DNA from: Elusimicrobiota bacterium
Lineage (GTDB): Bacteria > Elusimicrobiota > Elusimicrobia > UBA1565
Direction: 5' to 3'
DNA length: 14,653 bases
Assembly (NCBI GenBank): GCA_043819795.1
Contig: JBDREN010000211.1
Span: 1 to 14,653, forward strand
Both the position numbers and the translations under genes were made by a program. The number at the start of each line of letters is the position of its first letter. Position 1 is the first letter of the stretch. The notes below the pieces were generated by a model, which saw only the letters and a program-made list of their open reading frames with translations, was not told where the DNA came from and made no database searches. This document shows positions 5 through 14,653 of this stretch, piece by piece.

Positions 5-55
5 TGGGTGCGGGGGCAGGATTTGAACCTGCGACCTCAAGGTTATGAGCTTTGC
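5..55 (-). tRNA. 3' half of initiator-type tRNA-Met(CAT); partial copy, probable att site of an integrated element
   Basis: Minus strand reads gcaaag-CTCATAA-ccttgaggtc-gcagg-TTCAAAT-cctgc-ccccgca-c-CCA: anticodon loop with CAT, T arm, acceptor 3' strand and CCA. No D arm or 5' acceptor strand upstream, and one mismatch in the anticodon stem. Confidence 0.9.
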
Positions 56-317
56 ACCTCAGAAAACGGCCCGCTCAGAACCTCTCCGTCGAGGACCCCC
101 CTGGCGGCGGCTCGCGCCCGCCCAGGAACCTTGTGGTTCTCGATGATTGCAGCAGATCCCAATTACCGCCGCTTCCACCAGGCAAACCAGACGTGGTCCT
201 ATATAGCCGTGCCCGATCGCATGCAATCATCGTTTTCGCGCGATTGCAGCGGAGAAACCGTCATTCTTGAACTGCACCAGTGAATGGGCTGACGTCATCG
301 GAACTGGCAGGGAACCA

Positions 318-608
318 TCACCGGCCCCCAGGGCGCAGGCGGAATCCCGGCTTCTCCAATCCATTCGGCGCGCCGTAGGTGTAGTCCAGCTCAAAGCCGT
401 CCAGGTTGATGCGCGAGACTGAGTCCATGATCACGGGGATTCCCTTGACTCTCCGTGCGGCTCTCAGGTCGCCCTCGTCGTGCGTTTCCAAGCCGACCCG
501 ACAGCACCCCTCGGAATACTCCACCCTCAGTACTGTGCTCTCAGGCTCCGGCCGAGCCTGAATCTCCTTCTTGACGGCCTCCACCGCGCGATCGGTTATC
601 CTGAGCAT
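318..608 (-). CDS. HesB/IscA (Fe-S_biosyn)-like small protein lacking the C-terminal CxC motif
   Basis: MLRITDRAVEAVK...LRVEYSEGCC...GIPVIMDSVS..NLDGFELDY..GF matches the A-type carrier pattern (ITDxA, LRV, GC, V.VD, L.G..LDY, GF). It ends before any CGCG. GAGGA RBS. Confidence 0.75.
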   Translation of the reverse strand: MLRITDRAVEAVKKEIQARPEPESTVLRVEYSEGCCRVGLETHDEGDLRAARRVKGIPVIMDSVSRINLDGFELDYTYGAPNGLEKPGFRLRPGGR

Positions 609-620
609 GGGCGGCGTTCC

Positions 621-830
621 TCAAAGAGACGATATCTCCAAGAGCCTTTCCTCCAGCTCGCTTACCATACGCCGCACAAGCTCCCTCTGCTCGATAAGGC
701 CGGCGTCCCTTCGGGGCGTCCCTCGCCGGGCGACGCGCCGGAGCTGGAGCCCCAGGTTGTCGTCGGTCCTCTCCAGGACATCGATCTCCGTCCGCAGTCT
801 TCGTATCTTGCTCCTTCTTTTATCCCGCAT
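621..830 (-). CDS. 69-aa coiled-coil protein resembling the GreA/GreB N-terminal domain with a degenerate, basic tip
   Basis: ATG at 830 preceded by GAAGGAGG. RLRTEIDVLE...ARRGTPRRDAGL.EQRELVRRMVSELEERL aligns by eye with GreA KLREELDFLK...EHGDLKENAEY...EQQGFCEGRIKDIEAKL. The CDS is well supported; the family call is tentative. Confidence 0.6.
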   Translation of the reverse strand: MRDKRRSKIRRLRTEIDVLERTDDNLGLQLRRVARRGTPRRDAGLIEQRELVRRMVSELEERLLEISSL

Positions 831-841
831 GACCGCCTCCT

Positions 842-2269
842 TCAACGCCCTGCCCGGACGGCCCGTTCCGGTTCTTCCGGTCGCTCTTGTCTGAGCGCCG
901 GAAGGACGATTGAGAACTCCGAGCCCCTTCCGTCTTCAAAGGCGACGTTCACCTTCCCGGAATGTCTCTCAGCCGCCATCCTACAGAACGCCAGCCCCAG
1001 CCCCACGCCGGCCGCGTCGGAGGCGAAGCTCTCGAAAGGACGGAATATCTTCTCCCGGAGCTCCGGGGGCACGCCCGGGCCTTCGTCCTTCACGTAGAAC
1101 TCCACCATCCGCCCGTCGGGGCCCGGGGACCTCGCGCCGAGCGTCACCGTGCTTCCGCGCGGGCTATTCTGCAGCGCGTTGCTGACGAGGTTGCCCACGA
1201 GCCGCCGCAGCAGGGCCCAGTCCGCATAGATCCACTCCTCAGAGAGGGAGTCGGGAAGCTCCAGCCGCCATCGGCGGCCCGAGCCTTGCGTGAGCACGGC
1301 ATTCTCCTCGCCGCATTCACGGATGAAGCACGGGACGGATATCCGGTCCTTGTTGAGAGGGACCTGGGCCGCCTCGAGCTTCGATACGTGCAGCAGGTCC
1401 TCGACCATATTATCGATCCGCCGCATGCAGAGCCGCGCCATCGGCAGCAGCTTCTGGCGCCACTCCGGCGTCAAGAGGTCGCCGCCCTTGGCCGCGCGCA
1501 GGGTGCAATCGATGACCGTGAGGGGGTTCTTGAGGTCGTGCACCAGCATCGAAGACCACCGGTCTTTTGCCTTCTCCAACCGCACGCGCTGCTCATGCTC
1601 GGACTCCAGCTGCTTGTGCAGCCTTCGCAGCGAGGCGGTCAGCTTGGAGACCTCGTCGCTCCCCGCGTCCTTCGGCAGCGGCGGAAAAGCCTCGCCCATC
1701 CTCATCCTCTCCGCGGCTTCCGCTAATCGGCAAAGGCGCCGGCCGAGAGCCCTGCCCAGCCACCAGGAGAGACCGGCGAGCAGGATCGCCGCGAAGCCTG
1801 CGATGGCCGCGCCGCGCCACAGGAGCGCGGCCACGGCTTCACGCATGCCTTCGGTGCCTATCCCGATCTCGACGCTGCCTGGGCCCGCGTCACGGGACCC
1901 GATCGCGGCTGTCGCCCGATAGTAGCCGCCGTCCGAAGTCTCGGCGGCCCATTTGTCGGGCCCCGCTCCCGGGCGCGCAGCGTATCGGCTCAGAGCTCCA
2001 TCCGGGCTCCGCAAAGCGACGTACGCCACGCGGGGGAGCTCCAGGAATTCCTGAAAGGTATCATCCAGTGCGGCGTCGTCTCCGGCCTTGAGGGACTTCT
2101 GGGCAAGATACGCGACCACCTCGGCCAGGGCTTGGCCGCGGGCCTTGAGCGGTTCATGCAGGGACCGCCTGGACGCCACGAAACGGTCCGCGATCAGTAG
2201 ACTCAGGCAGACGCTTGAGATCGCGAACGTGATCGCCGCCAGCTTGCCGCGCAGAGACAATGGCCTCAC
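842..2269 (-). CDS. Membrane sensor histidine kinase (2 TM, periplasmic domain, HAMP, HisKA, HATPase_c)
   Basis: H box SMLVHDLKNPL, N box NLVSNALQNS, G1 DEGPGVP, F box IFRPF, G2 GVGLGLAFC, HAMP (SDEVSKLTASL). Start taken as GTG 2269, which overlaps the upstream stop (GTGA); the longer ORF to 2665 overlaps the SH3 gene. Confidence 0.93.
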   Translation of the reverse strand: MRPLSLRGKLAAITFAISSVCLSLLIADRFVASRRSLHEPLKARGQALAEVVAYLAQKSLKAGDDAALDDTFQEFLELPRVAYVALRSPDGALSRYAARPGAGPDKWAAETSDGGYYRATAAIGSRDAGPGSVEIGIGTEGMREAVAALLWRGAAIAGFAAILLAGLSWWLGRALGRRLCRLAEAAERMRMGEAFPPLPKDAGSDEVSKLTASLRRLHKQLESEHEQRVRLEKAKDRWSSMLVHDLKNPLTVIDCTLRAAKGGDLLTPEWRQKLLPMARLCMRRIDNMVEDLLHVSKLEAAQVPLNKDRISVPCFIRECGEENAVLTQGSGRRWRLELPDSLSEEWIYADWALLRRLVGNLVSNALQNSPRGSTVTLGARSPGPDGRMVEFYVKDEGPGVPPELREKIFRPFESFASDAAGVGLGLAFCRMAAERHSGKVNVAFEDGRGSEFSIVLPALRQERPEEPERAVRAGR

Positions 2270-2847
2270 CCCCCTGCGGTATCCCGGGTCCCGCGCCGCC
2301 GCGCCTGCGGGTCCGCCCCGGCCTCCCAGCCGTCCTCCGGGCGCTCCCTGTCGGGCCGCTTGTCTCCCCATACGATGGACGCATGGATCCATCCCTCCAC
2401 ATCGCCCTCGTCCTTCACCTTGAGCCAGTTCCCCGTCCGGTCCACGACCTTGAACGTATAGCCCAGGTCCACCTCCCAGACCACCTGGCGCCTCATGCCC
2501 GGGCCTTCGCGGACGTTCGCCATCTCGGCGGTCACGACTACGGCGGGGCCGTCGTCGAGCAGGCTGTCGTGGATCCAGCCCGTATAGTCCTCGAAATCCC
2601 GGACGCGGACCCAATCGCCGCGGCGCGCCAGCACCTCCAAGGGGGTGTGAATCCACGCCTGCCACGCCACGTCCGAGCTGTGCGAGGGTCCGGCCCGGAC
2701 GTTGGCCCTCTTGACGCGCACGGACGCAATCTCTCCGAACGCCGCGGAGCTCAGAGCGAGGATGAGCGCCGGCACGGCCGCCCGGACCGCCAGGCCTCGG
2801 CCGGCGCGCCGGGATCGATCCGCTTCCGATCGGGTGTTCGTTCTCAT
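2266..2847 (-). CDS. Secreted protein with two tandem bacterial SH3 domains
   Basis: Signal peptide (ALILALSSAAFG) and two repeats ANVR.GP...W..V.D..G..GWIH.S; AAGGAGG RBS. Confidence 0.92.
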   Translation of the reverse strand: MRTNTRSEADRSRRAGRGLAVRAAVPALILALSSAAFGEIASVRVKRANVRAGPSHSSDVAWQAWIHTPLEVLARRGDWVRVRDFEDYTGWIHDSLLDDGPAVVVTAEMANVREGPGMRRQVVWEVDLGYTFKVVDRTGNWLKVKDEGDVEGWIHASIVWGDKRPDRERPEDGWEAGADPQARRRGTRDTAGG

Positions 2848-3832: not shown

Positions 3833-4335
3833 GGGCCAAGGCAGCAGGAGCGCGGGGCACGCGGCCGAGCGTATGAGTTCCGCCGCGCTGGAAGGCCCGG
3901 GAGCAGCTCTTTCCCGGACCTCACCACCAGCATGGGGAGCGGCAGCATCCGGGCCACCCGCTCGGTGACCGAGCCCGACCGGGCCAGCGGCATGCCGCGC
4001 CTGGCGTGCGTCCCCATCACCACCGCCTCCGCGGTGCCGAGGACGCTTTCCACGGGACCGCTTTCCTGCACGTACGCGGAAATCCGCATGCCCGGGCCCG
4101 CGAAGCGGCCGGCGAACTCCTTGAGGCAGCGGGCCAAGGCGCGCTTCTTGTGGAGCGCTCTCGGCTCGATGTCGAGCAGGATCTCAGGCGTGAAATACGG
4201 AGGCGCGTCGAAGCGCTTGGCCGTCACCGCGACGAGCCGCGACTTGCGGCTCCTCGCCCACGCGCCCGCGTACCGGAGCGCGAGCTTCGAATGTCCGCTG
4301 AAATCCACCGGGCAGACGATGCATCGCCGCGTCAT
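3829..4335 (-). CDS. Universal stress protein (Usp domain)
   Basis: IVCPVDFSGHSKLALRYA...VVMGTHARRG...GSVTERVARMLPLPMLVVR is the Usp signature. TGATG coupling to the upstream gene. Confidence 0.9.
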   Translation of the reverse strand: MTRRCIVCPVDFSGHSKLALRYAGAWARSRKSRLVAVTAKRFDAPPYFTPEILLDIEPRALHKKRALARCLKEFAGRFAGPGMRISAYVQESGPVESVLGTAEAVVMGTHARRGMPLARSGSVTERVARMLPLPMLVVRSGKELLPGLPARRNSYARPRAPRSCCLGP

Positions 4336-4622
4336 CAGCCGCTCCCCCGGGTTATGACGAAGCGCGGCCCGCCGTCCCCGTCTTTACGGTAGTCGAGGGC
4401 GAATCCGCCCAGCGCCAAGGACGGGAAGGCCACGAGGTCGATCAGGACCGCCCCGCCCGCCTTCCGGGTCATGATGTATTCATGCCCGACTCCTGCGCGA
4501 TTCCACACGACGCAGGGCGGCCCCTTGCGGAAGGCGAGCCTCGCCTTGGCCCGCCTGGGGAAGCCGTTCGCCGTCCGAAGGGTCCCGATGCGGCGAGCCG
4601 CTCTGGATGCGAGTATGATCAT
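4335..4622 (-). CDS. Divergent HesB/IscA-like small protein
   Basis: MIILASRAARRI...ARLAF...VLIDLVAFPSL..GFALDY..RFVI follows the same pattern as the other two paralogs. GGAGGAGG RBS. Confidence 0.6.
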   Translation of the reverse strand: MIILASRAARRIGTLRTANGFPRRAKARLAFRKGPPCVVWNRAGVGHEYIMTRKAGGAVLIDLVAFPSLALGGFALDYRKDGDGGPRFVITRGSG

Positions 4623-4824: not shown

Positions 4825-4855
4825 TTGACAAATCCGGCTATGGAGCTATAACTAT
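4825..4855 (+). promoter_or_regulatory. Sigma70-type promoter TTGACA-N16-TATAAC
   Basis: TTGACA at 4825-4830 and TATAAC at 4847-4852, upstream of the GspC/PilP-like gene. Confidence 0.7.
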
Positions 4856-4951
4856 GGTAGGGCGTGTCCACGATCGGCACGCCGCTTCGGGCCAAGAAGC
4901 CATCGCGCTCCAAGAAGTTGGAGGCGGGGCTTCTTCGTTTCTGGGGGTCTC

Positions 4952-5602: not shown

Positions 5603-6335
5603 GCCGGAGGAGCCATAAGTAGGCACATCGCGGCGATCGCATTGAGCCGTATGCTGACGATCGGCACGGCCGGCCCGACGATGGCTCAGCCGCAGCCGAA
5701 CCCGGGCTTGAGCAAGGGGGACGGCAGCGGATGGAGAGACTCCGAAGGCGCTCCCGGCCCCCGTAGCGGAGGGCCCCCTCCGTCCCGGAACCGCCGCTAG
5801 GGCCTCGGGCGACCCCGGCACGACGGCCCGCACGCCCCGGGGCCTCGCGCGGAGGCGACACCCGCGTCATCGTCACGGACAGCGGAGAGAAGCGGGGACA
5901 GAGGCCTGGCGGGGGGGGAGACGACCAATCCTGAGCAGGTCACCTTCGTGGATGCGGGGATCAGATCTTCGTCACCCCGACCATCGGCGAGGACGGCTTC
6001 ATCACCATGAAGTTGAAACCCATGGCGAGCTCGGTCAACAACACCATCACCACCGCGCATGGCAACACGATTCCCTTTGTCCGGACCTCCGAGGCCGAGA
6101 CAGCGTCATGATCAAGGACGGGACGAACCTTGTAATCGGCGGCCCGATCGAGGCCCGCAAGGAGAAGAAGGTCAACCGCGTCCCCATCCTGAGCAAGATC
6201 CCGCCGCTGGGCTTCTTCCTCAAGAGCGTGAGCGAGCAGGTGCGCGAGTCGCAGCTGGCGATCTTCCTGCCCCCGCATCGTTTCGGGAACTTTGGGCGCG
6301 AAGGGATCAAGCACGCTGTAACAGTATTTCCCTAG
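5599..6335 (+). pseudogene. Secretin (GspD/PilQ family) pseudogene: internally deleted and frameshifted
   Basis: Across two single-base frameshifts (about 5965 and 6102) the sequence reads EQVTFVDAGI/FVTPTIGEDGFITMKLKP...IPFVRTSEAET/VMIKDGTNLVIGG...VPILSKIPPLGFFLK...QLAIFLPPH, the secretin C-terminal domain. A signal-peptide-like remnant follows ATG 5599 out of frame. Most of the N-terminal part is missing. Confidence 0.85.
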
Positions 6336-6375: not shown

Positions 6376-7902
6376 TCAGGACGGGCCGGCGCGCGCGCCC
6401 AGGTCGCGCGCCGGCCGCGCCGGGGGTGCCCCGCGAGGACCCTCCTGGGACTGCCTGTAGGCGTCGAACAGCATGGCGGAGAGCACGTTCCCCACCGCGA
6501 TGGCTCCCGGGCGCATGATGTGCCCGAGGTCCGGAGACACCAGCCTGGGCCTCCTCAGATACCAGCGCGCCATGGTGCCCTCGCCGCCCAGCGCCTCGAA
6601 GAGATCGACGTAGGCGCACCCGGCTTGCGCGGCTGCCTGCTCCGCGGCGGCGACGACCTTCCGCACCGCCGGCCGGCTCACGATCAGATTGCGCTTCCTC
6701 ATGCCCATGTCTTTGGGGGAGACGACCAGGCATGAGGCCTCCGGACGCCCGGTCATCGTCCTGCCGATGCTTTTGACGTAGGCGCGGCGGAAGGACCTGG
6801 CCTGGCGGTCGGTCAGATACGGCTTGCGCATGAGCTCCTTGGCGCCCCACTGGAATATCACGAGGTCGGGCTTCCTCGCCGCGACCTGGCGCCGCAGGTG
6901 GTCCGGGTCGTAGTTCAGCTGGGTGTTGGCCCACGCGCCGATGACCATGACGGCGTCCAGCACGAAACCCCGGTCGCGCTCGAGAACGGCCCCGTAGAGC
7001 CGGGCCGGGAAGTCGCCGGCCGAGACGCGGACCCTGTGCGGGGCGTCGTCGAGCTCCATCGCGAAGACCTTGTCGCGGGTCCCGTAGGCGTTCGTGCGCA
7101 CGGTGGCGGAGGAGCTTCCGCCGTCCACTTCGATGCGCACGTCCCCGCCGCCGGGGTAGGCCTGATAGTGCAGCTCGAAGCGCGAGAAGCGGGCTCCGGC
7201 GGGGAAGTCGAGATATCCCCCGCGCCGGCTCTCGCGGGGCGAAAGCGCGGCGTACTCCACCCACGCGGGGCCCTCGTTGACCGCGAGCACGCCGCCCAGC
7301 CCGTAGCGCCGGTCGTCCAGTCCGCCCTCCAGCACCGTGTGGACCTTCCAGCCGTCGCTCACCGTCCAACGTACGTCCCTATGGCGCTGGTAGCGCCAGC
7401 CCGGCGCGATGACCATGAATCCCTTGCCGCCGTCGCCGAAGCGCGCTTGAAGCGAGCGGCGCACCTGGCTGGTCACCCGGTCGAAGCCGATTTCGGAATT
7501 CCCGAAATACACGGCCCGGACGGGCCCGGGCGCCGAGCCTTCCTCGGCGGCGGCGAGCGCGGTGAAGAAATGCCTCATGGAGCCGGCGGGATCGCGGAAG
7601 TGGGGGTGCCTGAACCCAGCGTACGGCCTGGGCGTCTCCTCTGCGGCAGCCCCCTCTTGGCGGCGGTCCGGCACGGGGGCTTCGCCCGGGGAAGCGGCCT
7701 GCGGCGGCCGTTCGAGGCTCGGCGGGGGGGGTGGTCGACCTACGGCCTCTTGCGCGCCCGGAGGCGGCGCAGGAGAAACGGCCCGCATATGGCGCATGCC
7801 GGACGCCAGGCCCGTCGCCGCGGCGAGCATCGCGATCATGGCGTAGCCGCCCCAGACGCCTCCGATGCGGTCGGCCTGCGGGGGATGCGCTGAATCTTCC
7901 AT
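6376..7902 (-). CDS. Periplasmic SGNH/GDSL-family O-acetyltransferase/esterase (PatB/AlgJ-like partner of MBOAT)
   Basis: N-terminal hydrophobic anchor, Pro-rich linker, block I YFGNSE, LQARFGDGGKGF, PDLVIFQWGAKE, SCLVVSP.D and DxxH (DLGH). Directly downstream of the MBOAT gene. Confidence 0.85.
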   Translation of the reverse strand: MEDSAHPPQADRIGGVWGGYAMIAMLAAATGLASGMRHMRAVSPAPPPGAQEAVGRPPPPPSLERPPQAASPGEAPVPDRRQEGAAAEETPRPYAGFRHPHFRDPAGSMRHFFTALAAAEEGSAPGPVRAVYFGNSEIGFDRVTSQVRRSLQARFGDGGKGFMVIAPGWRYQRHRDVRWTVSDGWKVHTVLEGGLDDRRYGLGGVLAVNEGPAWVEYAALSPRESRRGGYLDFPAGARFSRFELHYQAYPGGGDVRIEVDGGSSSATVRTNAYGTRDKVFAMELDDAPHRVRVSAGDFPARLYGAVLERDRGFVLDAVMVIGAWANTQLNYDPDHLRRQVAARKPDLVIFQWGAKELMRKPYLTDRQARSFRRAYVKSIGRTMTGRPEASCLVVSPKDMGMRKRNLIVSRPAVRKVVAAAEQAAAQAGCAYVDLFEALGGEGTMARWYLRRPRLVSPDLGHIMRPGAIAVGNVLSAMLFDAYRQSQEGPRGAPPARPARDLGARAGPS

Positions 7903-7908
7903 GGGAAA

Positions 7909-9348
7909 TCAGAATTGGAAGTAGATGAAGCTCCTCTGGGCCAAAAGCGCCATCCGCTCGATGATGAACGCGAAGGCCACGACCAGCGCACCCTGCAGCG
8001 CCGGATGCCAAACGGCGACCGCCCTCCGCATGCGCTCTTCCACCCGCTCCGGCACGTAGTGGGCGACCACGGCGGCCAGCAGCACGAGCAGGGAGACGGC
8101 GGGGAACCCGGCCGAAGCGCCCGTGAAGGAGAACGCGCGTCCATAGACCGCCCAGGCCGTGGGCAGGTCCGCGGCCCGAAACAACGGAAGCGAAAAGATG
8201 ATGAAGAGATTGGTCAATACGATCGGCGCGACCCTGCCCTCGAGCCGGTCCTCGAGACCGCGCGCGCCCCCCGCCGCGAACGGCGCCGCGAGCGCCAGCG
8301 CTGCGCGGGTCCCGATCACACCCACGGCGTGATAGAGGCCGAACAGGACGTATTTCCAATGGGCGCCGTGCCAAAGGCCGATGACGGCGAAGGTGAGGAG
8401 GATGTTGCGCAGCGTCCTGTGGAGCCCGCCCCGGCTTCCGCCCATCGGCACGTAGAGATAGTCGAAGGCGAAGCGGGTCAGCGTCATGTGCCACCGCCGC
8501 CAGAAGCGGGCGGGGGTGCAGGCGGCGTAGGGCCTGTCGAAGTTCTGCGGCAGGTCGAACCCGAAGAGCCGGGCCGACCCGATGGCGATGTCGGTGTAGC
8601 CGGAGAAATCGCAGTATATCTGGAAGTGGAACCCGATCAAGGCCACGAACGTCTCCATCGAGTTGAACAGATGCGGCATGTTGAAGACCGGATCGACGAC
8701 TGCCCCGGCCAGATAGTCCGCCACCACCATCTTCTTGGCCAGCCCGCGCAGGATGAGGTATACGCCTTGGGCCAGGTCGTCGCGCGTCAACCTCGGCTCG
8801 CCCTCGAACTGCGGCAGGAGTTCGCCCGCGCGCACGATGGGCCCGGCGATTAGCTGGGGGAAGAAGGCGACGAACAGGAAGAAGTCGCGCGCGGACCGGG
8901 CCGGCTGGATGCGCCGGAGGTAGATGTCCAGCGTGTAGCTCATGCTCTGGAAGGTGTAGAACGAGACGCCGATGGGCAGCAGGATCCGCAGGGTGGGGAG
9001 GTCCGCCTCCATGTGGAGCAGGTTTAGGGTCCAGCCCACGTTGTCGATCATGAATTGGCCGTACTTGAAGAGGCAGAGCACGGCCAGGTTGCTGACCACG
9101 CTGATCACGAGGAAGAGCCGCCGCAAGCGCGGCCTCTTGTCGTAGGCGTAGATGAGGTGGCCCGCGGAATAGTCGATGAGGGTCGAAAGGAAGATCAGGA
9201 CGAGATAGAGCCCGTTCCAAGAGGCGTAGAAGACGTAGCTGGCGGCCAAAAGCAGCCATAGCCGCAGGGACGGATGCCGCCGCATGCCCCAGAAGAGGAC
9301 GAAGACTGAAAACAGGAGGAAGAAGTATCCGCCGCTGTTGAACGACAT
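7909..9348 (-). CDS. MBOAT family O-acyltransferase (AlgI/PatA/DltB type)
   Basis: MSFNS..F, LPIGVSFYTFQSMSY, FFPQLIAGPIVR, QIYCDFSGYTDIAIG, NFDRPY, FWRRWHMTL, GLWHGA. Confidence 0.96.
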   Translation of the reverse strand: MSFNSGGYFFLLFSVFVLFWGMRRHPSLRLWLLLAASYVFYASWNGLYLVLIFLSTLIDYSAGHLIYAYDKRPRLRRLFLVISVVSNLAVLCLFKYGQFMIDNVGWTLNLLHMEADLPTLRILLPIGVSFYTFQSMSYTLDIYLRRIQPARSARDFFLFVAFFPQLIAGPIVRAGELLPQFEGEPRLTRDDLAQGVYLILRGLAKKMVVADYLAGAVVDPVFNMPHLFNSMETFVALIGFHFQIYCDFSGYTDIAIGSARLFGFDLPQNFDRPYAACTPARFWRRWHMTLTRFAFDYLYVPMGGSRGGLHRTLRNILLTFAVIGLWHGAHWKYVLFGLYHAVGVIGTRAALALAAPFAAGGARGLEDRLEGRVAPIVLTNLFIIFSLPLFRAADLPTAWAVYGRAFSFTGASAGFPAVSLLVLLAAVVAHYVPERVEERMRRAVAVWHPALQGALVVAFAFIIERMALLAQRSFIYFQF

Positions 9349-9483
9349 CAGGATCCCGCCCGCGCGGTCTTCCGGATACTACCGCAATCCGCCCGGCGGG
9401 ATACAGGGGCCGGGGCCTCCGGCGCGCGTTCGATCAGGCCTTTCAAGCCGGCGGACGCTCCCCCGGGATGCGGTGGCCCGCTC

Positions 9484-9933
9484 TCATAGCCTCGGCGTGT
9501 AGACCTCAACCACTTCGACGTCGAAGCGCAAGGATTTTCCCGCGAGCGGGTGATTGAGGTCGACGGTGACGTCGCCTGGTCCAAGCGCGACCACCGTCGC
9601 GCGGTCCAGCCCGCCGACGCGCGGCACGGAAACCGCGCTGCCGATCCGGAGAGCGCCCGGGTTGAGGAACTCCTTCTTGGGTATTCTCTTGAGCGCCTTC
9701 GGGTCGCGCCGGCCGTAGCCCTGTTCCGGGGGCAGGAGCACGGTCTTCGTTTCGCCGGCCTTCATGCCGGCCAGGCGCTCTTCGAGCCCCGGCAGGATCT
9801 CCCCCGAGCCTTGGATGTAGGTCACGGGGTCCTTCCCCGACGTGCCGGCGACCGCGCGGCCGTCCACCGTGAGGGTGTAGCGGATCGTGGCATGCGAGCC
9901 TTTCCGGATGATGCCCGCGCTACCTCCTATCAT
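9484..9933 (-). CDS. slyD: FKBP-type peptidyl-prolyl isomerase, SlyD/SlpA type with IF domain and no His-rich tail
   Basis: YTL..DG, P.TYIQGSGEILPGLEE.L.GMKAGE...PEQGYG, VTVDLNHPLAGKSLRFDVEV. GGAGAGG RBS. Confidence 0.92.
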   Translation of the reverse strand: MIGGSAGIIRKGSHATIRYTLTVDGRAVAGTSGKDPVTYIQGSGEILPGLEERLAGMKAGETKTVLLPPEQGYGRRDPKALKRIPKKEFLNPGALRIGSAVSVPRVGGLDRATVVALGPGDVTVDLNHPLAGKSLRFDVEVVEVYTPRL

Positions 9934-9972
9934 GACCTTCCCTCTCCAGGAGGACCGTCCGGCCCGCGGTCC

Positions 9973-11538
9973 TCATTCACAGTACTCCCGCAGCGCTCCC
10001 GACCGCGAAGGATGCCGGAGCTTGCGGACGGCCTTGGATTCGATCTGGCGTACCCGCTCCCGCGTGATCCGCAGCAGGCGGCCCACCTCGTCGAGAGTGC
10101 GGGGATAGCCCGCGCCGATGCCGAAGCGCAGCTTCAGGATGCTGGCCTCCCGGCCGGTCAGCGTGGAGAGGACCCTCTCGAGCCTGGCGCGCAGCATGCT
10201 CTCTTTGAGCAGGCGCGAGGGCTCCGGCACGCTCGGGTCCTTGATGAGGTCCTCGAGGCGCGAGTCCCCGTCCTCGCCGATCGGGGTGTCGAGGGAAACC
10301 GGCCGCTGCATGATCTTGAGGCCCGTCTTGACCGTGTCGAGAGGGACGCCGAGCCGCCGCGCGTACTCCTGCGGCGTGGGATCGCGCCCGAGCTCCTGCC
10401 GGCACCGGCCTCCGGCCTTATGGATCCTCGAGCACAGCTCCTTCATGTGCACCGGGATGCGGATCGTGTCCGCCTGGTCGGCGATCGCCCGGTTCATCGA
10501 CTGGTGCACCCACCAGGTCGCGTAGGTGGAGAACTTGAACTTCTTCCTGTACTCGAACTTGTCCACCGCCTTCATGAGCCCCAGTCCGCCCTCCTGGATC
10601 AGGTCGGACATCTCGAGGCTGGAATACCTCTTCTTCCTGGCGATGGCGACCACCAGCCTGAGGTTGGCCCGGATGATCCTGAGCTTGTCGGCGAGTATGT
10701 GCTCCTCGAGCGCCGTGATCCTCCGGTCCAGCTCCAAGAACCGGTCGACCGGCATGGGGATCGTGCGGGTCAGCCGTTCAAAACGCTCCCGAACCGCCCG
10801 CATCCTCGTCCCGCCCGGGCCTGGACGGCCGGAACGCCGCCCGCGGCCGGCTCCGGAGCGTCTTCGCATCGCCTCGAGCTCCCGGCGGCACTGACGGACC
10901 TTGGCGGCGAGGCTCTTGATCTTGTTGGCGAGCCGTTTGATCTTGTCCGGGTTGAGGTCCAGCGCCACGATCCTCTTGAGGACCGCCTTCTTGCGCGCCT
11001 CGATAGCTCTCGTGATGGCCGCCTTCCTGCGAGGACAGGCGCGGCGGAGTTCGGCCGCCAGCCGGCTTATCCGCGCCTCGGACCTGGCTATGCAGCCAGA
11101 CGTGCGGCGCATCTTGCGCCGCATGGCCGCGAGCTCTCGGGGCGGCCGCGTGCCGCGGGGCATCAGCTCCTTGGGCGACATCTCCTTCAAGGAAAGCAGG
11201 TGCTCCCAGTTGCGGATCTCGCGCATGGCCACGGGGGATTCCAGGACCAAGAGCTCAAGCTCCTTTTGGCGCTCATGGACGTTCCTGCAGAGCCGGACCT
11301 CGTCGTCCCGGCTGAGCAGCGCGGTCTTCGCCATCTGGGAGAGATACATGCGGATCGCGTCCGAAGCGCCCGGAGCATGGTCCCATTGCTCTCGGAAAGC
11401 CCGGCCACGGCGGCCCGTCCCGGCGCCCAGCCCCGCGCGTGTCGGGACCGGCCTGCCGCGCCCACGCATCCCGTTGCGGGCTCCTGCCGTCGATCGTCCG
11501 CGACTGCCGGCCATAGTCATCAAATCGCGGGCCGTCAT
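9973..11538 (-). CDS. rpoD: RpoD-like sigma70 factor lacking acidic region 1.1 (probable accessory paralog)
   Basis: Region 1.2 [10 protein letters not shown], non-conserved region, region 2 [37 protein letters not shown], region 3 SLDTPIGED, region 4 TLDEVG...[22 protein letters not shown]. Exact start uncertain. Confidence 0.93.
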   Translation of the reverse strand: [521 protein letters not shown]

Positions 11539-11554
11539 CCTCTTCCTCGAGACG

Positions 11555-11857
11555 TCAAGCGGCTCCTCCAGGCATCGGCCGCATCCAGAACCCCGCCTGT
11601 CCGAAGCCGTTGGACTCAGGGGGGGTATAGTCCAGCATGTGCCCGGAGAATTCCGCCTCCAGACCGCTGTCCACCACCACGGGGATGCCCGACACCTCCC
11701 GCACCTCCTCGGAGCCGAGGCGCTTCAAATCCTCTAGGCCCAAGCGGATTCCCCCTTCCTCGGTCCGCTCGATGCGCAGGGCCTTGCGTCCGGGCGATCC
11801 CCGCTGCGGGAGTTGGTTTTTGATGTGTTTCGCGGCTCGTTCGGAGAACCTGATCAT
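11555..11857 (-). CDS. Cysteine-free HesB/IscA-like small protein
   Basis: MIRFSERAAKHIK...ALRIE...GIPVVVDS...GHMLDY...GF. ATG 11857 has a GGAAGAGG RBS and overlaps the upstream stop (ATGA). Paralog of 318..608. Confidence 0.75.
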   Translation of the reverse strand: MIRFSERAAKHIKNQLPQRGSPGRKALRIERTEEGGIRLGLEDLKRLGSEEVREVSGIPVVVDSGLEAEFSGHMLDYTPPESNGFGQAGFWMRPMPGGAA

Positions 11858-12132
11858 GGAGCGTCCTCTTCCTGTACGGCGGACGGGCGCGTGCCGGCGC
11901 AGGAGGCGTGCGCCAGGTTGAGCCCGCTGGTCTCTCCCGGATCCTCGACCACGACGGGATGGTCCTCGCCCGGACATCCTCCGAAATCGGGCCCGTCGGA
12001 CAGGAGGAAGCCGAGTCCGCATACGCAGCATTCAGAGGGCTGTTCGCCGTCCTCCGGACGTTCTTCGTAGGGCCGCCCGCCGTCATAGCGGCGTGCCCAC
12101 CACGCCGGTCCGGATCCTTTTGAGTCGGCCAT
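11854..12132 (-). CDS. Hypothetical 92-aa acidic protein with CxxC...HxxC putative zinc ligands
   Basis: GGAGGAGG RBS, CCVCG and HASC motifs, translationally coupled to the next gene. Confidence 0.65.
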   Translation of the reverse strand: MADSKGSGPAWWARRYDGGRPYEERPEDGEQPSECCVCGLGFLLSDGPDFGGCPGEDHPVVVEDPGETSGLNLAHASCAGTRPSAVQEEDAP

Positions 12133-12192
12133 GCCTCCTCCGCGCTTGTTTTCTCGATGGTCGGGCGCCGCTCGCGTCCGCCGCGGCCCGGC

Positions 12193-12459
12193 CTACGATT
12201 CCGGAGGGACGATCTCGAGTATCTTGAAGCCTTTCGTGCCCTCGGGCAGCCTGACCAGCGCCGCCTCTCCCGCTCCGCATCCGATGATCGCGTCGGCGAG
12301 CGGGCAATAGACGGAGATCCTGTTTCGGGACCGATCGACCTCGTTCGGAAGGACCAGCTCATAGTCCGCCTTCTCTGCCGAGTCGACGTTCTGTATGGTC
12401 ACCCGGCTTCCCAGACAGACGTCGTCCTCCCCGTCAACGGTCTTCCCGTTCCTCGTCAT
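12193..12459 (-). CDS. GreA/GreB/Rnk C-terminal-domain-only protein (88 aa)
   Basis: VCLGSRVTI...YELVLPNEVD..RNRISVYCPLADAIIG..AGE...LPEG...KILEI. ATG 12459 has a GGAGG RBS. No N-terminal coiled coil is encoded upstream. Confidence 0.88.
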   Translation of the reverse strand: MTRNGKTVDGEDDVCLGSRVTIQNVDSAEKADYELVLPNEVDRSRNRISVYCPLADAIIGCGAGEAALVRLPEGTKGFKILEIVPPES

Positions 12460-12497
12460 GGCGTTGCCTCCGGATTGCGGCGCGCCTTCCCCCAGCG

Positions 12498-12545
12498 AAA
12501 CAAAGGCCCCCACGACCCTCCCGTCATGGGGAGCGCCGTGGAGGC
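12498..12545 (-). terminator. Leader terminator 2 (attenuator-like)
   Basis: GCCTCCACGGC pairs with GTCGTGGGGGC (11 bp including G-U) around an inner CTCCC/GGGAG hairpin, followed by CTTTGTTT. Confidence 0.55.
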
Positions 12546-12560
12546 TGACGCGGCCTCCAC

Positions 12561-12599
12561 AAAAAGAATCCTCCGCACCCGAGTAATCGGGAGCGAAGG
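12561..12599 (-). terminator. Leader terminator 1 (attenuator-like)
   Basis: CCTTCGCTCCCGA-TTAC-TCGGGTGCGGAGG stem (one mismatch, one G-U) followed by ATTCTTTTT. Confidence 0.65.
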
Positions 12600-12645
12600 C
12601 GGTCCTGGCCTACCGACGCGCGCCGCTCATGAGCGCGCTATCATT

Positions 12646-12673
12646 ATTATAGCCGGCCTTGCCCTGATGTCAA
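12646..12673 (-). promoter_or_regulatory. Consensus sigma70 promoter TTGACA-N16-TATAAT for the greC-sigma operon
   Basis: TTGACA at 12673-12668 (contains the TGA stop of the ANTAR gene) and TATAAT at 12651-12646. Confidence 0.8.
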
Positions 12674-13260
12674 GGCCGGAGACCCTCCTCGGCGAGCAGG
12701 ATGGCCCGCGCTACCTCCGCCAGCTTCTTGTTGGACTTTCTCGCCATCCTCTGGAGCTTCCTGTGGGCGTCCGCCTCCGAGAGGTTGGAGGCGCGCATGA
12801 CGATTCCCTTCGCCTTCTCGATCACCTTGCGGTCCTCCAAGGACTGCTTGAGCGAGTCCACCTCCTCATGCATCGCTTTGTACCCCTCGCACCGGGACAG
12901 GGCCAGCTGGATGGCGGGCATCAGGTCCTTCTCCTCGATCGGCTTGACCAGATATGAGGCTAGATGGGACTGCTTCGCCGCCCGGTCGATGAGGTCTTCC
13001 TCGTGGTAGGCGGTCACGATGACGAACGGGGTCGCCCTGTGCCGGCACACCCTCTCCGCCAGCTCCAATCCCGAGAGGCCCGGCATCTTGATGTCCGCGA
13101 CCACCAGGTCCGGCGCGAGCTCGCGAGCCAGCCGCAGGGCCTCCTCGCCGTCGCCCGTGTCGGCGATCACGAGATGGCCCAGCTTCTTGATCATCGATTT
13201 CAGGTGCAGGCGGATGACCCGCTCGTCCTCGGCGAGCAGGACGCGCAGTTTTTTCCTCAT
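12670..13260 (-). CDS. REC-ANTAR response regulator (PdtaR/EutV/NasT type)
   Basis: REC motifs LLAEDE, DIKMPG, TAY and YLVKP; ANTAR motif LEDRKVIEKAKGIVM...SEADAHRKLQRMA...KLAEVA. ATG 13260 overlaps the kinase stop (ATGA). Confidence 0.95.
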   Translation of the reverse strand: MRKKLRVLLAEDERVIRLHLKSMIKKLGHLVIADTGDGEEALRLARELAPDLVVADIKMPGLSGLELAERVCRHRATPFVIVTAYHEEDLIDRAAKQSHLASYLVKPIEEKDLMPAIQLALSRCEGYKAMHEEVDSLKQSLEDRKVIEKAKGIVMRASNLSEADAHRKLQRMARKSNKKLAEVARAILLAEEGLRP

Positions 13261-14381
13261 TCGGTCTTCGTCCTGAAAGTCACGCTGACGCGCGTGCCTT
13301 TCCCCCGTGCGCTCGCCATGGCGATGTCCCCGCAATGGAGCCTGGCGATCTTTCTGGCGATGGCCAGTCCCATGCCCGTGCCGCCCTCCTTGGTCGAGAA
13401 GAAGGGGACAAACGCGCGCCGCATCTCCTCCGCGCTCATGCCCCTCCCGTCGTCCGCGAACTCCACGCGCATCATCGGCGTCCCGTTCCGCACGAACGGC
13501 GCGGCGGCCAGCTTGATGCAGCCCCGTTGGCCGAGCGACTCGATGGCGTTCTCCAGCAGGTTGCGGAAGACGGACCTCATGCGGCGCGGATCGATAGAGC
13601 AGGGCGGGAGCCCGGAGTACTCCTTCCGGACCTGGATATTCTTCGCCGAGAGCGCTCCCCGCAGGTCGCGCAAGGCGTCGTCGATAACGCCGGAGACGCT
13701 GGTCTTCCGCGCCGCCAGCCGGACCGGCCGCGAGAAGTCCCTGAGGTCGGAGAATAGGTTGTTGAGGGCGTTGACGCTTTCCTCTAGGGACCGGATGATC
13801 GTCCGGGAGTGCCTGCCCCGCGGCCGCATCTGCTCCATCAAGAGGGCCACGGAGGACCGCAGCTTCTGAAGAGGGTTCTTGAACTCATGGACCACCGAGA
13901 TGATCAGCTCGCCGAGCCGCGCGAGATCGCGGGCCTGGGACAGCTCGTGCTCGATCTTCTTGCTCCTGGTGATGTCGATGCCCGTGTACAGGTATCCGGC
14001 GGGACGCTGTCGTTCATAGATGGGCACGATCGTGAGCAGAAGGACCACGTTGCTGCCGTCCTTGGCCGTGCGGGTGATCTCCCCCTTCCAGACCCCGTGC
14101 TCGGCCACGGCTCTGTAGTGTTCGACGCGGTCCCTTTCCAGGGAAGGGTCCGCGGAGAGCGTGTCGATGGAGCGCCCCACGATCTCGCCGCGGCTGTAGC
14201 CGAACAGCCTGAGGAACGCCGGGTTGACCTCGACGATCCTTCCCTTGAGGTCGGTGACGAGCATGGCGTCCGTGAAATGGGTGAACATGTCCCGCAGGAG
14301 CTGGACATTGCCCTTGAGGACGAGGTCCGGCTCCTTGATGATGGCCGTGCCGACGAGGGCGTCGTCGTCGTTGGTTTGCAT
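13257..14381 (-). CDS. Cytoplasmic PAS-domain histidine kinase (HisKA + HATPase_c)
   Basis: PAS (TDLKGRIVEVNPAF..FGYSRGEIVG...WKGEI...KDG), H box VHEFKNPL, N box NLLENAIES, DDGRGM, PFFSTKEGGTGMGL. Start set at ATG 14381, downstream of the promoter. Confidence 0.93.
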   Translation of the reverse strand: MQTNDDDALVGTAIIKEPDLVLKGNVQLLRDMFTHFTDAMLVTDLKGRIVEVNPAFLRLFGYSRGEIVGRSIDTLSADPSLERDRVEHYRAVAEHGVWKGEITRTAKDGSNVVLLLTIVPIYERQRPAGYLYTGIDITRSKKIEHELSQARDLARLGELIISVVHEFKNPLQKLRSSVALLMEQMRPRGRHSRTIIRSLEESVNALNNLFSDLRDFSRPVRLAARKTSVSGVIDDALRDLRGALSAKNIQVRKEYSGLPPCSIDPRRMRSVFRNLLENAIESLGQRGCIKLAAAPFVRNGTPMMRVEFADDGRGMSAEEMRRAFVPFFSTKEGGTGMGLAIARKIARLHCGDIAMASARGKGTRVSVTFRTKTE

Positions 14382-14445
14382 GGCTTTCCGGAAAGGTCTC
14401 CAGCCCGCCGGATACGGACGGCGGCGGGGCGACCCTCGGGTCGGT

Positions 14446-14476
14446 ATAGTTATAGAGGTATCTCGCGATTTGTCAA
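14446..14476 (-). promoter_or_regulatory. Sigma70-type promoter TTGACA-N16-TATAAC for the kinase-ANTAR operon
   Basis: Minus strand TTGACAAATCgcgagatacctCTATAACTAT has the same ends as the 4825-4855 promoter. Confidence 0.75.
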
Positions 14477-14563
14477 CCCCGCCCCTCGGCGCCCTCCTCC
14501 ATCCCGACATCCCCGGCCGGGCCGCAGGAAAATCGAAAGTAGATTTTGATTGACGGGGCTTAG

Positions 14564-14601
14564 GCGGATCCGGCGGATCTTTCCCGGATCCGCTGTTTTT
14601 T
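14564..14601 (+). terminator. Intrinsic terminator-like hairpin
   Basis: GCGGATCCGG-N10-CCGGATCCGC (10-bp perfect stem) followed by TGTTTTTT. Confidence 0.55.
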
Positions 14602-14604
14602 CGC

Positions 14605-14633
14605 TTGTGTATAACACATTAGTATACTATAGT
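14605..14633 (+). promoter_or_regulatory. Putative promoter TTGTGT-N17-TATAGT for a leaderless gene starting at ATG 14641 (truncated by the window edge)
   Basis: AT-rich block; the ATG lies 8 nt after the -10 with no SD. Overlapping palindromes TGTGT-ATA-ACACA and TAGTATACTA. Confidence 0.45.
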
Positions 14634-14653
14634 GTGGTATATGAACAAGCTCC

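Follow-up and report, generated by a model that had tools for sequence, protein, structure and literature searches.

The window analysed here is the whole of contig C211 (JBDREN010000211.1; 14,653 bp) from an Elusimicrobiota bacterium (GCA_043819795.1, genome label G000), whose assembly of 4.99 Mb in 241 contigs is 90% complete. It encodes a histidine kinase, a response regulator with an ANTAR domain and, directly behind the regulator gene, a promoter, two small hairpins and an intrinsic terminator in front of greC, a gene for the C-terminal domain of a Gre factor. We propose that this promoter-leader-terminator region is probably an attenuator read by the ANTAR regulator, and that it gates the genes from greC to an FKBP isomerase gene, among them a sigma factor paralog, as one transcript. 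The proposal is drawn from comparison with paralogous and orthologous leaders, which show covariation, and it agrees with the link from ANTAR regulator to leader to sigma operon made in an earlier note on this DNA. That note, written from the sequence without database searches, described nine co-oriented genes as a single island-borne cassette. The nine genes (6376-14510, all on the minus strand) and their domain names were recovered with Pfam and NCBIfam; the cassette itself separates into three modules with three phyletic distributions.

Gene calls and searches

Because GC-rich DNA yields long open reading frames (ORFs) by chance, genes were called by several criteria: third-position GC, a codon log-odds score for which 1,053 long ORFs of the genome served as the training set (5th percentile of true genes, 0.274) and domain matches in Pfam and NCBIfam. 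A 757-aa ORF, for example, lies antisense to the sigma gene. Orthologs were sought in 60 relatives, in 300 genomes of the phylum, in a word-indexed search of 5.8 billion clusters and in a profile search of 1.84 billion representatives. Among the relatives, G003 is a sister genome from the same family and another genus, and G002 and G016 belong to genus g3.

A kinase and a REC-ANTAR regulator

The elements on which the proposal depends are the following, in order of transcription.

14448-14476, minus strand: promoter-like site TTGACA-17-TATAAC of the kinase-regulator operon, one of 17 such sites in the 4.99-Mb genome
13257-14381, minus strand: soluble PAS-HisKA-HATPase histidine kinase (ORF 13257-14510; Pfam; codon score 0.627)
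12670-13260, minus strand: REC-ANTAR response regulator (Pfam REC 81.8 bits and ANTAR 67.1 bits, both above cut-offs)
12646-12673, minus strand: promoter-like site TTGACA-16-TATAAT, 12/12 consensus
12618-12638, minus strand: hairpin P1, 7-bp stem, heptaloop CAUGAGC
12597-12611, minus strand: hairpin P2, 4-bp stem, heptaloop CAGGACC
12559-12599, minus strand: intrinsic terminator T1, two-tier stem 12599-12570, then AUUCUUUUUGU
12497-12560, minus strand: second leader module, hairpin H3 (12560-12538) and terminator-like hairpin T2 (12532-12507) with the tail CCUUUGUUUC

The kinase likely starts at the ATG at 14381 (M44 of the ORF) because its promoter lies at 14476-14448; position 14476, where the earlier note placed the edge of its cassette, belongs to the -35 box of this promoter and is not coding. 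The start of the regulator gene overlaps the kinase stop codon (ATGA). Orthologs of both proteins occur in G003 (77% identity for the regulator, 60% for the kinase) and are their sole close relatives; contig scans of genomes and metagenomes with the regulator returned just the G003 record and receiver-domain matches. The genes downstream of the pair in G003 are quite unlike those in G000. The ANTAR domain is common elsewhere in the phylum (102/301 sampled genomes), and within the order it is present in only three of 61 genomes: G000, where it occurs once, G003 and G026, which has a different ANTAR protein and no leader match.

The regulator aligns over its full length with solved ANTAR proteins. 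The best of these is Rv1626 (1s8n; E 2.7e-40), and the alignment with EutV (6wsh) is full-length and collinear (E 2.9e-34). In the EutV-RNA structure (PMC8934654), a flipped G at loop position 4 (G4) is the sole base-specific contact, made via R142, E160 and Y164. When the G4-contact residues of EutV (R142, K143, K147, E160 and Y164) are mapped onto the regulator, assuming a 2-residue offset between the numbering of the PDB chain and that of the paper, R, K, K and E are retained and the Tyr has become His. The same Tyr-to-His change is found in the G003 regulator, and Rv1626 has Phe at this position.

The leader in front of greC

The stop codon of the regulator gene overlaps the -35 box of the 12646-12673 promoter. 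Both heptaloops of the leader that follows read C-A-N-G-R-N-N. P2 and T1 share bases, the 3' arm of the former serving as the foot, in the 5' arm, of the latter. In predicted folding, forcing P2 costs 7.0 kcal/mol and strips T1 of its bottom pairs. The T1 stem is kept via compensatory changes in four relatives. The attenuated leader of the earlier note is thus upheld, with a consensus promoter (12673-12646), hairpins and terminators. The start of greC, at 12459, lies downstream of T2. We also considered the DNA 5' of greC as the decayed N-terminal half of the gene; this is ruled out, the stretch being a leader that is 80% identical to the one on contig C23 described below.

Five leaders of like architecture

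Leaders of this architecture occur five times, three times in G000 and twice in G003.

Window 12558-12641 (-): the greC leader described above
Window 4859-4943 (+): within a second leader unit (4825-4943, plus strand) of a TTGACA-17-TATAAC promoter, P1 (4861-4883, loop CACGAUC), P2 (4890-4901, loop CAAGAA) and a terminator with U-tract
C23:2004-2087 (+), in the operon region G000:C23:1960-5350 (L058)
G003 leader 1: directly after the orthologous regulator gene, with a TATAAT box, P1, P2 and terminator
G003 leader 2: L057 16664-16742 (-), equal to G003:C15:20665-20739, upstream of SH3-kinase-regulator genes, having a TTGACA-17-TACCCT site of its own together with P1, P2 and terminator

A search with an nhmmer profile made from the greC leader and G003 leader 1 found C23:2006-2081 and, weakly, window 4862-4939. 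The promoters of the C23 leader and the second window leader are consensus and stand at the same spacing to the leader. A covariance model built from four leaders (the three G000 copies and the G003 copy after the regulator) regains the three G000 copies at E <= 1e-24 and, in the 60 relatives, finds the G003 training copy and one untrained G003 copy (E 3.6e-9). Its other matches, in G000 (E >= 1e-4) and in relatives, were dropped because they lie within coding DNA and have no promoter or terminator. Searches upstream of the window's SH3 gene and in the G026 ANTAR locus found no leader. Strong leader matches among the 61 genomes are those of G000 and G003, both of which have an ANTAR domain, and two of the five leaders, in two genera, start no more than about 30 nt from a regulator stop codon.

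In the four-sequence alignment 96.9% of cells are paired, and 6 of 16 pairs changed on both sides; shuffles gave 2.0 +/- 1.1 such pairs, with 1/500 reaching six, and slid partners gave 0-2 double changes. With four related sequences this covariation is supportive, not decisive. The P1 stem is 7-8 bp long in all five leaders and the P2 stem 3-4 bp in four of them. The ten loops all carry (C/U)-A-N-G, so that A2 is invariant and G4 is present in 10/10; position 1 is C in nine and U in one, and nine loops have seven bases, one six. A six-base register, placed by hand, is a poorer fit in the G003 upstream copy. Forcing P2 is predicted to strip the bottom pairs of the terminator in every one of the five leaders, at a cost of 5-11 kcal/mol.

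Perfect TTGACA-N16-18-TATAA[TC] sites number 17 in all in this genome, four of them in the ANTAR-leader system, and three of the 17 fall in this 14.6-kb contig, where 0.05 would be expected (binomial P 1.7e-5). Strong constitutive initiation combined with control by attenuation would yield such a pattern. The H3/T2 module recurs nearly base for base in the C23 leader (L058 2082-2145 (+)); it was not seen in the window's second leader or in the two G003 leaders.

Since a like leader heads two more G000 operons, the regulator probably runs a small regulon. Behind the C23 leader lie genes for an IscA-like paralog, for a second S21 ribosomal protein with 59% identity to the product of the rpsU adjoining RpoD2, for a peptidoglycan-binding protein, for a protein of the DedA/VTT type and for a radical SAM enzyme resembling lysine-2,3-aminomutase. 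Behind the second window leader stand a 216-aa ORF, PilP/GspC-like by eye and with no Pfam match, and then a secretin gene. The G003 leaders precede a symporter-deacetylase-GNAT operon and the SH3-kinase-regulator genes, respectively; the latter arrangement suggests positive autoregulation there. The G000 kinase, unlike that of G003, has a plain consensus promoter and no leader.

Elsewhere in the window, at 318-2847 (-), four genes stand in a row; they encode a protein with an SH3 domain, a histidine kinase with a HAMP domain, a coiled-coil ORF of 69 aa and a second IscA-like paralog with a Cys-Cys pair. The SH3 protein here is the best match of the G003 SH3 protein encoded between leader and ANTAR kinase.

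Comparison with known ANTAR systems

ANTAR targets are defined in PMC3369931 (Ramesh et al. 2012) by a pair of hairpins, each with a stem of 3 bp or more and a hexaloop carrying A1 and G4. The leaders described here have the tandem hairpins, the G4 and a P2 that is exclusive with a predicted terminator, which suggests that they work like ANTAR targets with a variant motif. The closest likeness is to EutW/EutV and the eut leaders of Enterococcus faecalis, and to NasR/nasF and AmiR/amiE, which have the same twin hairpins, terminator overlap and G4 (PMC3369931 and PMC8934654). As in EutW/EutV, a histidine kinase is paired with a REC-ANTAR regulator, and several leaders per genome make up a regulon. 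The EutV-type loops, however, are hexaloops starting with A, whereas those found here are seven-base loops starting with C or U and carrying A2; and the residue that contacts G4 is Tyr in EutV and His in G000 and G003.

In Mycobacterium tuberculosis, Rv1626/PdtaR (PDB 1s8n) has the same REC-ANTAR architecture and a PAS-type kinase partner, PdtaS. Actinobacterial ANTAR RNAs are reported to act mainly on translation, at start sites; in contrast, the hairpins in G000 precede intrinsic terminators.

The cargo also differs. Reported ANTAR regulons share a nitrogen theme (PMC3369931). The G003 cargo fits this theme and the G000 cargo, made up of paralogs of the transcription and translation machinery, does not. 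The earlier note recognised no described operon here, and none of such make-up was found in the literature (in listings and abstracts), PADLOC or Rfam. On ANTAR and sigma-factor control, those listings and abstracts name no ANTAR-gated sigma, Gre or S21 gene, which is weak evidence of novelty. PADLOC returned for the window just a generic similarity of the sigma factor to MzaA; a match of the receiver region of the regulator to the SduA model (E 1.8e-8) is weak and was taken as generic.

The genes behind the leader

Five putative genes lie between the leader and the MBOAT gene.

12193-12459, minus strand: GreC, 88 aa, Gre C-terminal domain alone (PF01272 63.7 bits, profile positions 3-75/77)
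11854-12132, minus strand: 92-aa orphan ORF with C-x2-C ... H-x2-C, GGAGG before the ATG
11555-11857, minus strand: IscA/HesB-fold protein, 100 aa, zero cysteine (TIGR00049 weak, E 0.0034; fold by AF2/Foldseek)
9973-11538, minus strand: RpoD paralog, 521 aa, with regions 1.2, non-conserved region (NCR), 2, 3 and 4 (Pfam)
9484-9933, minus strand: extra FKBP peptidyl-prolyl isomerase, 149 aa (PF00254 52.1 bits)

The several stop/start overlaps of the earlier note come down to two, the ATGA between kinase and regulator and another between the 92-aa ORF and the IscA-like gene; the remaining spacers measure 60, 16, 39, 135 and 6 nt. From the short spacers, the ribosome-binding sites and the finding that greC is followed by no other terminator-like site up to the FKBP gene, we infer that these genes are co-transcribed, the less certain step of the proposal.

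GreC matches just positions 78-157 of GreA (NCBIfam) and has no N-terminal coiled coil with acidic tip; its codon score is 0.457. No ortholog was found: the 60 relatives hold ordinary GreA only (best 47%), and the word-indexed search returned the protein alone. Rnk, Gfh1 and Rv3788 are described as secondary-channel factors without cleavage activity (PMC4598747). GreC has the same globular domain that binds RNA polymerase (RNAP); the coiled coil is missing in GreC, short in Rnk and full in Gfh1 and Rv3788 (PMC4598747). By analogy, GreC would compete with GreA and DksA as these proteins do. Elsewhere in G000, C212 carries the gene of a normal GreA, and C133 carries two further tail-only Gre genes. 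The latter (tandem, 91 and 89 aa) lie in a stretch of lower GC (C133:22389-31750, ~54-64%) after a tyrosine integrase, together with a kinase, a NarL-type regulator, a zinc-ribbon protein and a glutamate dehydrogenase.

The coding status of the 92-aa ORF is uncertain. It has no match in Pfam or NCBIfam and no homolog, the word-indexed search finding only itself; three matches in the 300 phylum genomes (E 0.002-0.006) were taken as chance. An AF2 model made with no alignment is uninformative (pLDDT 42.7). Zinc-binding anti-sigma (ZAS) proteins carry the motif H-x3-C-x2-C, and the ORF was rejected as one of them because its motif is C-x2-C ... H-x2-C instead.

For the IscA-like protein, AF2 gave a model with pLDDT 82.1, and Foldseek placed it closest to IscA (1r94/1s98), SufA and DsrR (2k4z; TM 0.65). 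Two paralogs exist in G000 (window 318-608 and C23:2160-2441). Orthologs are absent from the 60 relatives, and the word-indexed search recovered the protein alone; among the 1.84 billion representatives the subfamily has, at E <= 1e-10, one further relative (P0006), which is without gene context because its contig measures 630 bp. The three Cys ligands (GGCxG and the C-terminal CxC) are missing in the window protein, both paralogs and P0006. In Allochromatium vinosum, DsrR is described as an IscA-like protein that does not bind Fe or Fe-S and has a regulatory role (title of Grimm et al. 2010, cited in PMC11406059). The two share an IscA fold without cysteine ligands. They differ in that kinship is not detectable beyond the fold and that the neighbours are the dsr operon there and sigma or S21 genes here. 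A regulatory role of the Cys-less IscA fold, which leans on DsrR, may apply here by analogy. Another ORF of the window, orf95 (4335-4622), resembles these proteins by eye, a resemblance not upheld by hidden Markov models.

The sigma paralog has lost region 1.1, in place of which stands an Arg/Gly-rich stretch, and part of the NCR. The recognition helix of region 4.2 is kept, and region 2.4 is mostly kept, with R-to-H and R-to-D changes. The protein is 58-61% identical to RpoDs and forms a long branch (0.63) outside the housekeeping clade; no ortholog closer than the RpoDs was found in the 60 relatives. We rejected it as the primary (group 1) RpoD because it has no region 1.1 and lies outside the housekeeping clade, and the dnaG-linked copy is on C105. 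Group 2 sigma factors include RpoS, cyanobacterial SigB-E and actinobacterial HrdA-D. The window sigma resembles them in being RpoD-derived and presumably non-essential, in keeping regions 2-4 and in probably recognising sigma-70-like promoters. It differs in retaining a long NCR (between 1.2 and 2) without region 1.1, and in the position of its gene behind an ANTAR-type attenuator. The full-length RpoD genes of G000 stand after dnaG on C105 and after rpsU on C166. In these loci (C105:48346-51869 and C166:8964-10939) the classical rpsU-dnaG-rpoD operon is apparently split in two, each part with its own sigma.

The FKBP is 42-48% identical to the FKBPs of relatives and 45% to the genome's other copy (C150). 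Its closest model is of the FkpB/SlpA type (67.9 bits against a cut-off of 125). The earlier note called it SlyD, an identification we discard because the protein ends right after the domain and has no His-rich tail. The codon scores of GreC, the IscA-like protein and the FKBP (0.34-0.49) are gene-like.

The MBOAT-SGNH pair and the ends of the window

7909-9348, minus strand: MBOAT O-acyltransferase (PF03062 99.9 bits)
6376-7902, minus strand: SGNH-like protein, 508 aa (Lipase_GDSL_2 28.6 bits, below the cut-off of 32.9)
14525-14653, minus strand: terminal part of an insertion sequence (IS), inside which the contig breaks (25-nt end motif and identical inner flank)

G002 and G016 of genus g3 have orthologs of the first two genes (MBOAT 60-62%, SGNH 53-55%), which stand side by side there with their order unchanged. 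The genes upstream of them there are unrelated, with no FKBP, sigma or GreC. Measured against AlgI/AlgJ-X and DltB-like O-acyltransferase pairs, the MBOAT is clear and the putative SGNH partner falls below the cut-off; the adjacency is conserved. Comparative evidence thus makes the pair a separate ancestral module, and envelope O-acetylation, which the earlier note counted into the programme, is unsupported as a part of it in view of the 135-nt FKBP-MBOAT spacer and the independent conservation of the pair.

Since the kinase and regulator are found only in G003, the MBOAT-SGNH pair in g3 and the middle genes in none of the collections searched, the nine genes form three modules. The gene order is unique to G000 because GreC, the 92-aa ORF, the IscA-like protein, sigma and FKBP have no orthologs in these collections and the other parts are differently distributed. 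This uniqueness is one half of what the earlier note had said would count against its cassette.

The placement of these genes on an island had, as its sole basis, the IS end. GC is 66.3% in the window and 66.8% in the genome, so there is no compositional sign of an island. The IS end motif occurs in nine copies in the genome, often at contig ends, and one copy immediately precedes the promoter of the C23 leader. Together with the decayed secretin gene behind the second window leader, the IS end supports rearrangement by IS over a genomic island. At several loci (window 14525-14653, C23:1923, C127:115, C128:3165, C236:115 and others) a copy of the IS end is followed after ~17-80 nt by a -35-like TTGAC box, which looks like insertion of the element immediately 5' of promoters.

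Alternative explanations

Several observations weigh against the proposed attenuator and its operon. The leaders lack the hexaloop and the A1 of the ANTAR target rule, and an Rfam scan of the whole window (E<=1) matched no family at the leader. P2 of the C23 leader has just two contiguous pairs plus a bulged third and fourth pair, the overlap between P2 and terminator covers just 3-6 bases, and T2, a second terminator-like element, is unaccounted for by the ANTAR model. On the side of the cargo, the codon score of the 92-aa ORF (-0.006) is in the range of wrong frames and non-coding DNA, and from greC to the FKBP gene there are no orthologs anywhere searched, so that selection is not measurable. 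The secretin remnant (5712-6335) is frameshifted and retains just the C-terminal secretin motif; this decay and the IS end indicate a neighbourhood in flux. No RNA run containing the locus was found among sequencing runs, and co-transcription, termination and antitermination are all predicted.

The main rival holds that the leader may work and that its cargo is a chance, IS-shuffled set of redundant paralogs and non-genes, decaying and without joint function. The failure to find orthologs of the five middle genes in any of the genome and protein collections would be expected of such a set, as would the IS end at the contig edge, the decayed secretin behind a sister leader, the poor codon score that the 92-aa ORF receives and a sigma that is odd in composition and sits on a long branch. 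Yet sigma regions 2-4 are highly conserved, region 1.1 and the NCR being the only parts that changed; codon scores are gene-like for GreC, the IscA-like protein and the FKBP; and ribosome-binding sites and the ATGA overlap are intact. Moreover, an independent copy of the leader, on C23, also precedes an IscA-like paralog beside an S21 paralog, a second pairing with machinery paralogs. We therefore regard a chance set as unlikely, though it is the rival that deserves most attention.

A leader that functioned as a cis-acting attenuator or riboswitch, responding to a metabolite, to another RNA-binding protein or to translation of a leader peptide, would account for loops that depart from the canonical hexaloop A1/G4 rule and for an H3/T2 module that goes beyond ANTAR binding. 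Two similar loops on two short hairpins are, however, an ANTAR signature, with G4 in every loop; two leaders in separate genera adjoin the regulator gene, strong leader matches are confined to genomes with the regulator, and Rfam gave no riboswitch match. A different reader of the leader is consequently improbable. About as little credit, or slightly less, can be given to a single cassette of nine genes that moves and evolves together and takes in envelope O-acetylation, an idea already contradicted by the comparison of the MBOAT-SGNH pair with genus g3. The nine genes are co-oriented, and no terminator-like site was found between the FKBP and MBOAT genes; but the phyletic distributions are three, MBOAT-SGNH has other upstream genes in G002 and G016, and the MBOAT gene is set off by its long spacer and a weak ribosome-binding site.

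A possible mechanism

Under the proposed control by the ANTAR regulator, transcripts would end at T1 when there is no signal. On phosphorylation, the regulator would form a dimer that holds P1 and P2 in the manner of EutV, stripping the bottom pairs of T1 beside the U-tract, and RNAP would then read the greC, 92-aa ORF, IscA-like, RpoD paralog and FKBP genes; read-through may extend into MBOAT-SGNH. Competition for core enzyme from the sigma paralog would be felt at promoters of the sigma-70 type, and we infer from this a change of RNAP specificity such as the earlier note had proposed. The tail-only Gre protein would sit at the Gre/DksA docking site without cleavage, like Rnk, and the spare S21 would alter ribosomes. 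That these products jointly re-tune RNAP and ribosomes is the weakest step, argued by analogy, and we offer it tentatively as a possibility that may well prove wrong.

ANTAR regulators are known almost solely as switches of nitrogen-source and related metabolic operons. Sigma-70, Gre docking domain and S21 paralogs as cargo suggest that antitermination can govern the expression machinery itself. The leader breaks half of the hexaloop A1/G4 rule and keeps the base-specific half, G4, and it is paired with a regulator whose G4-contact residue is altered. Because the best-supported target breaks half the rule, motif searches by the canonical rule would miss a whole class of targets. It is conceivable, if doubtful, that the C-start heptaloop and the Tyr-to-His ANTAR represent a second recognition class of ANTAR antiterminators, in this Elusimicrobiota lineage the master switch of a regulon of "spare parts" comprising an RpoD paralog without region 1.1, a Gre decoy that blocks the secondary channel, a second S21, an FKBP and Cys-less IscA-fold adaptors. 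If this were true, the cell would rebuild its transcription and translation machinery by attenuation and not by anti-sigma factors. Being short, the leader, regulator and small proteins lend themselves to cloning, and in vitro tests of the predictions need no culture of the organism.

Minor observations

In one DNA sequencing run, which may represent the source sample, short identical pieces of the locus occur at low depth. At the other contig end, ARAGORN found zero tRNA genes, as in the rest of the window, and the Rfam scan reported one sub-threshold tRNA-like fragment (window 9-74 (-); Rfam tRNA 26.8 bits against a threshold of 29 bits). Positions 9-74 are present at very high depth in one DNA run.

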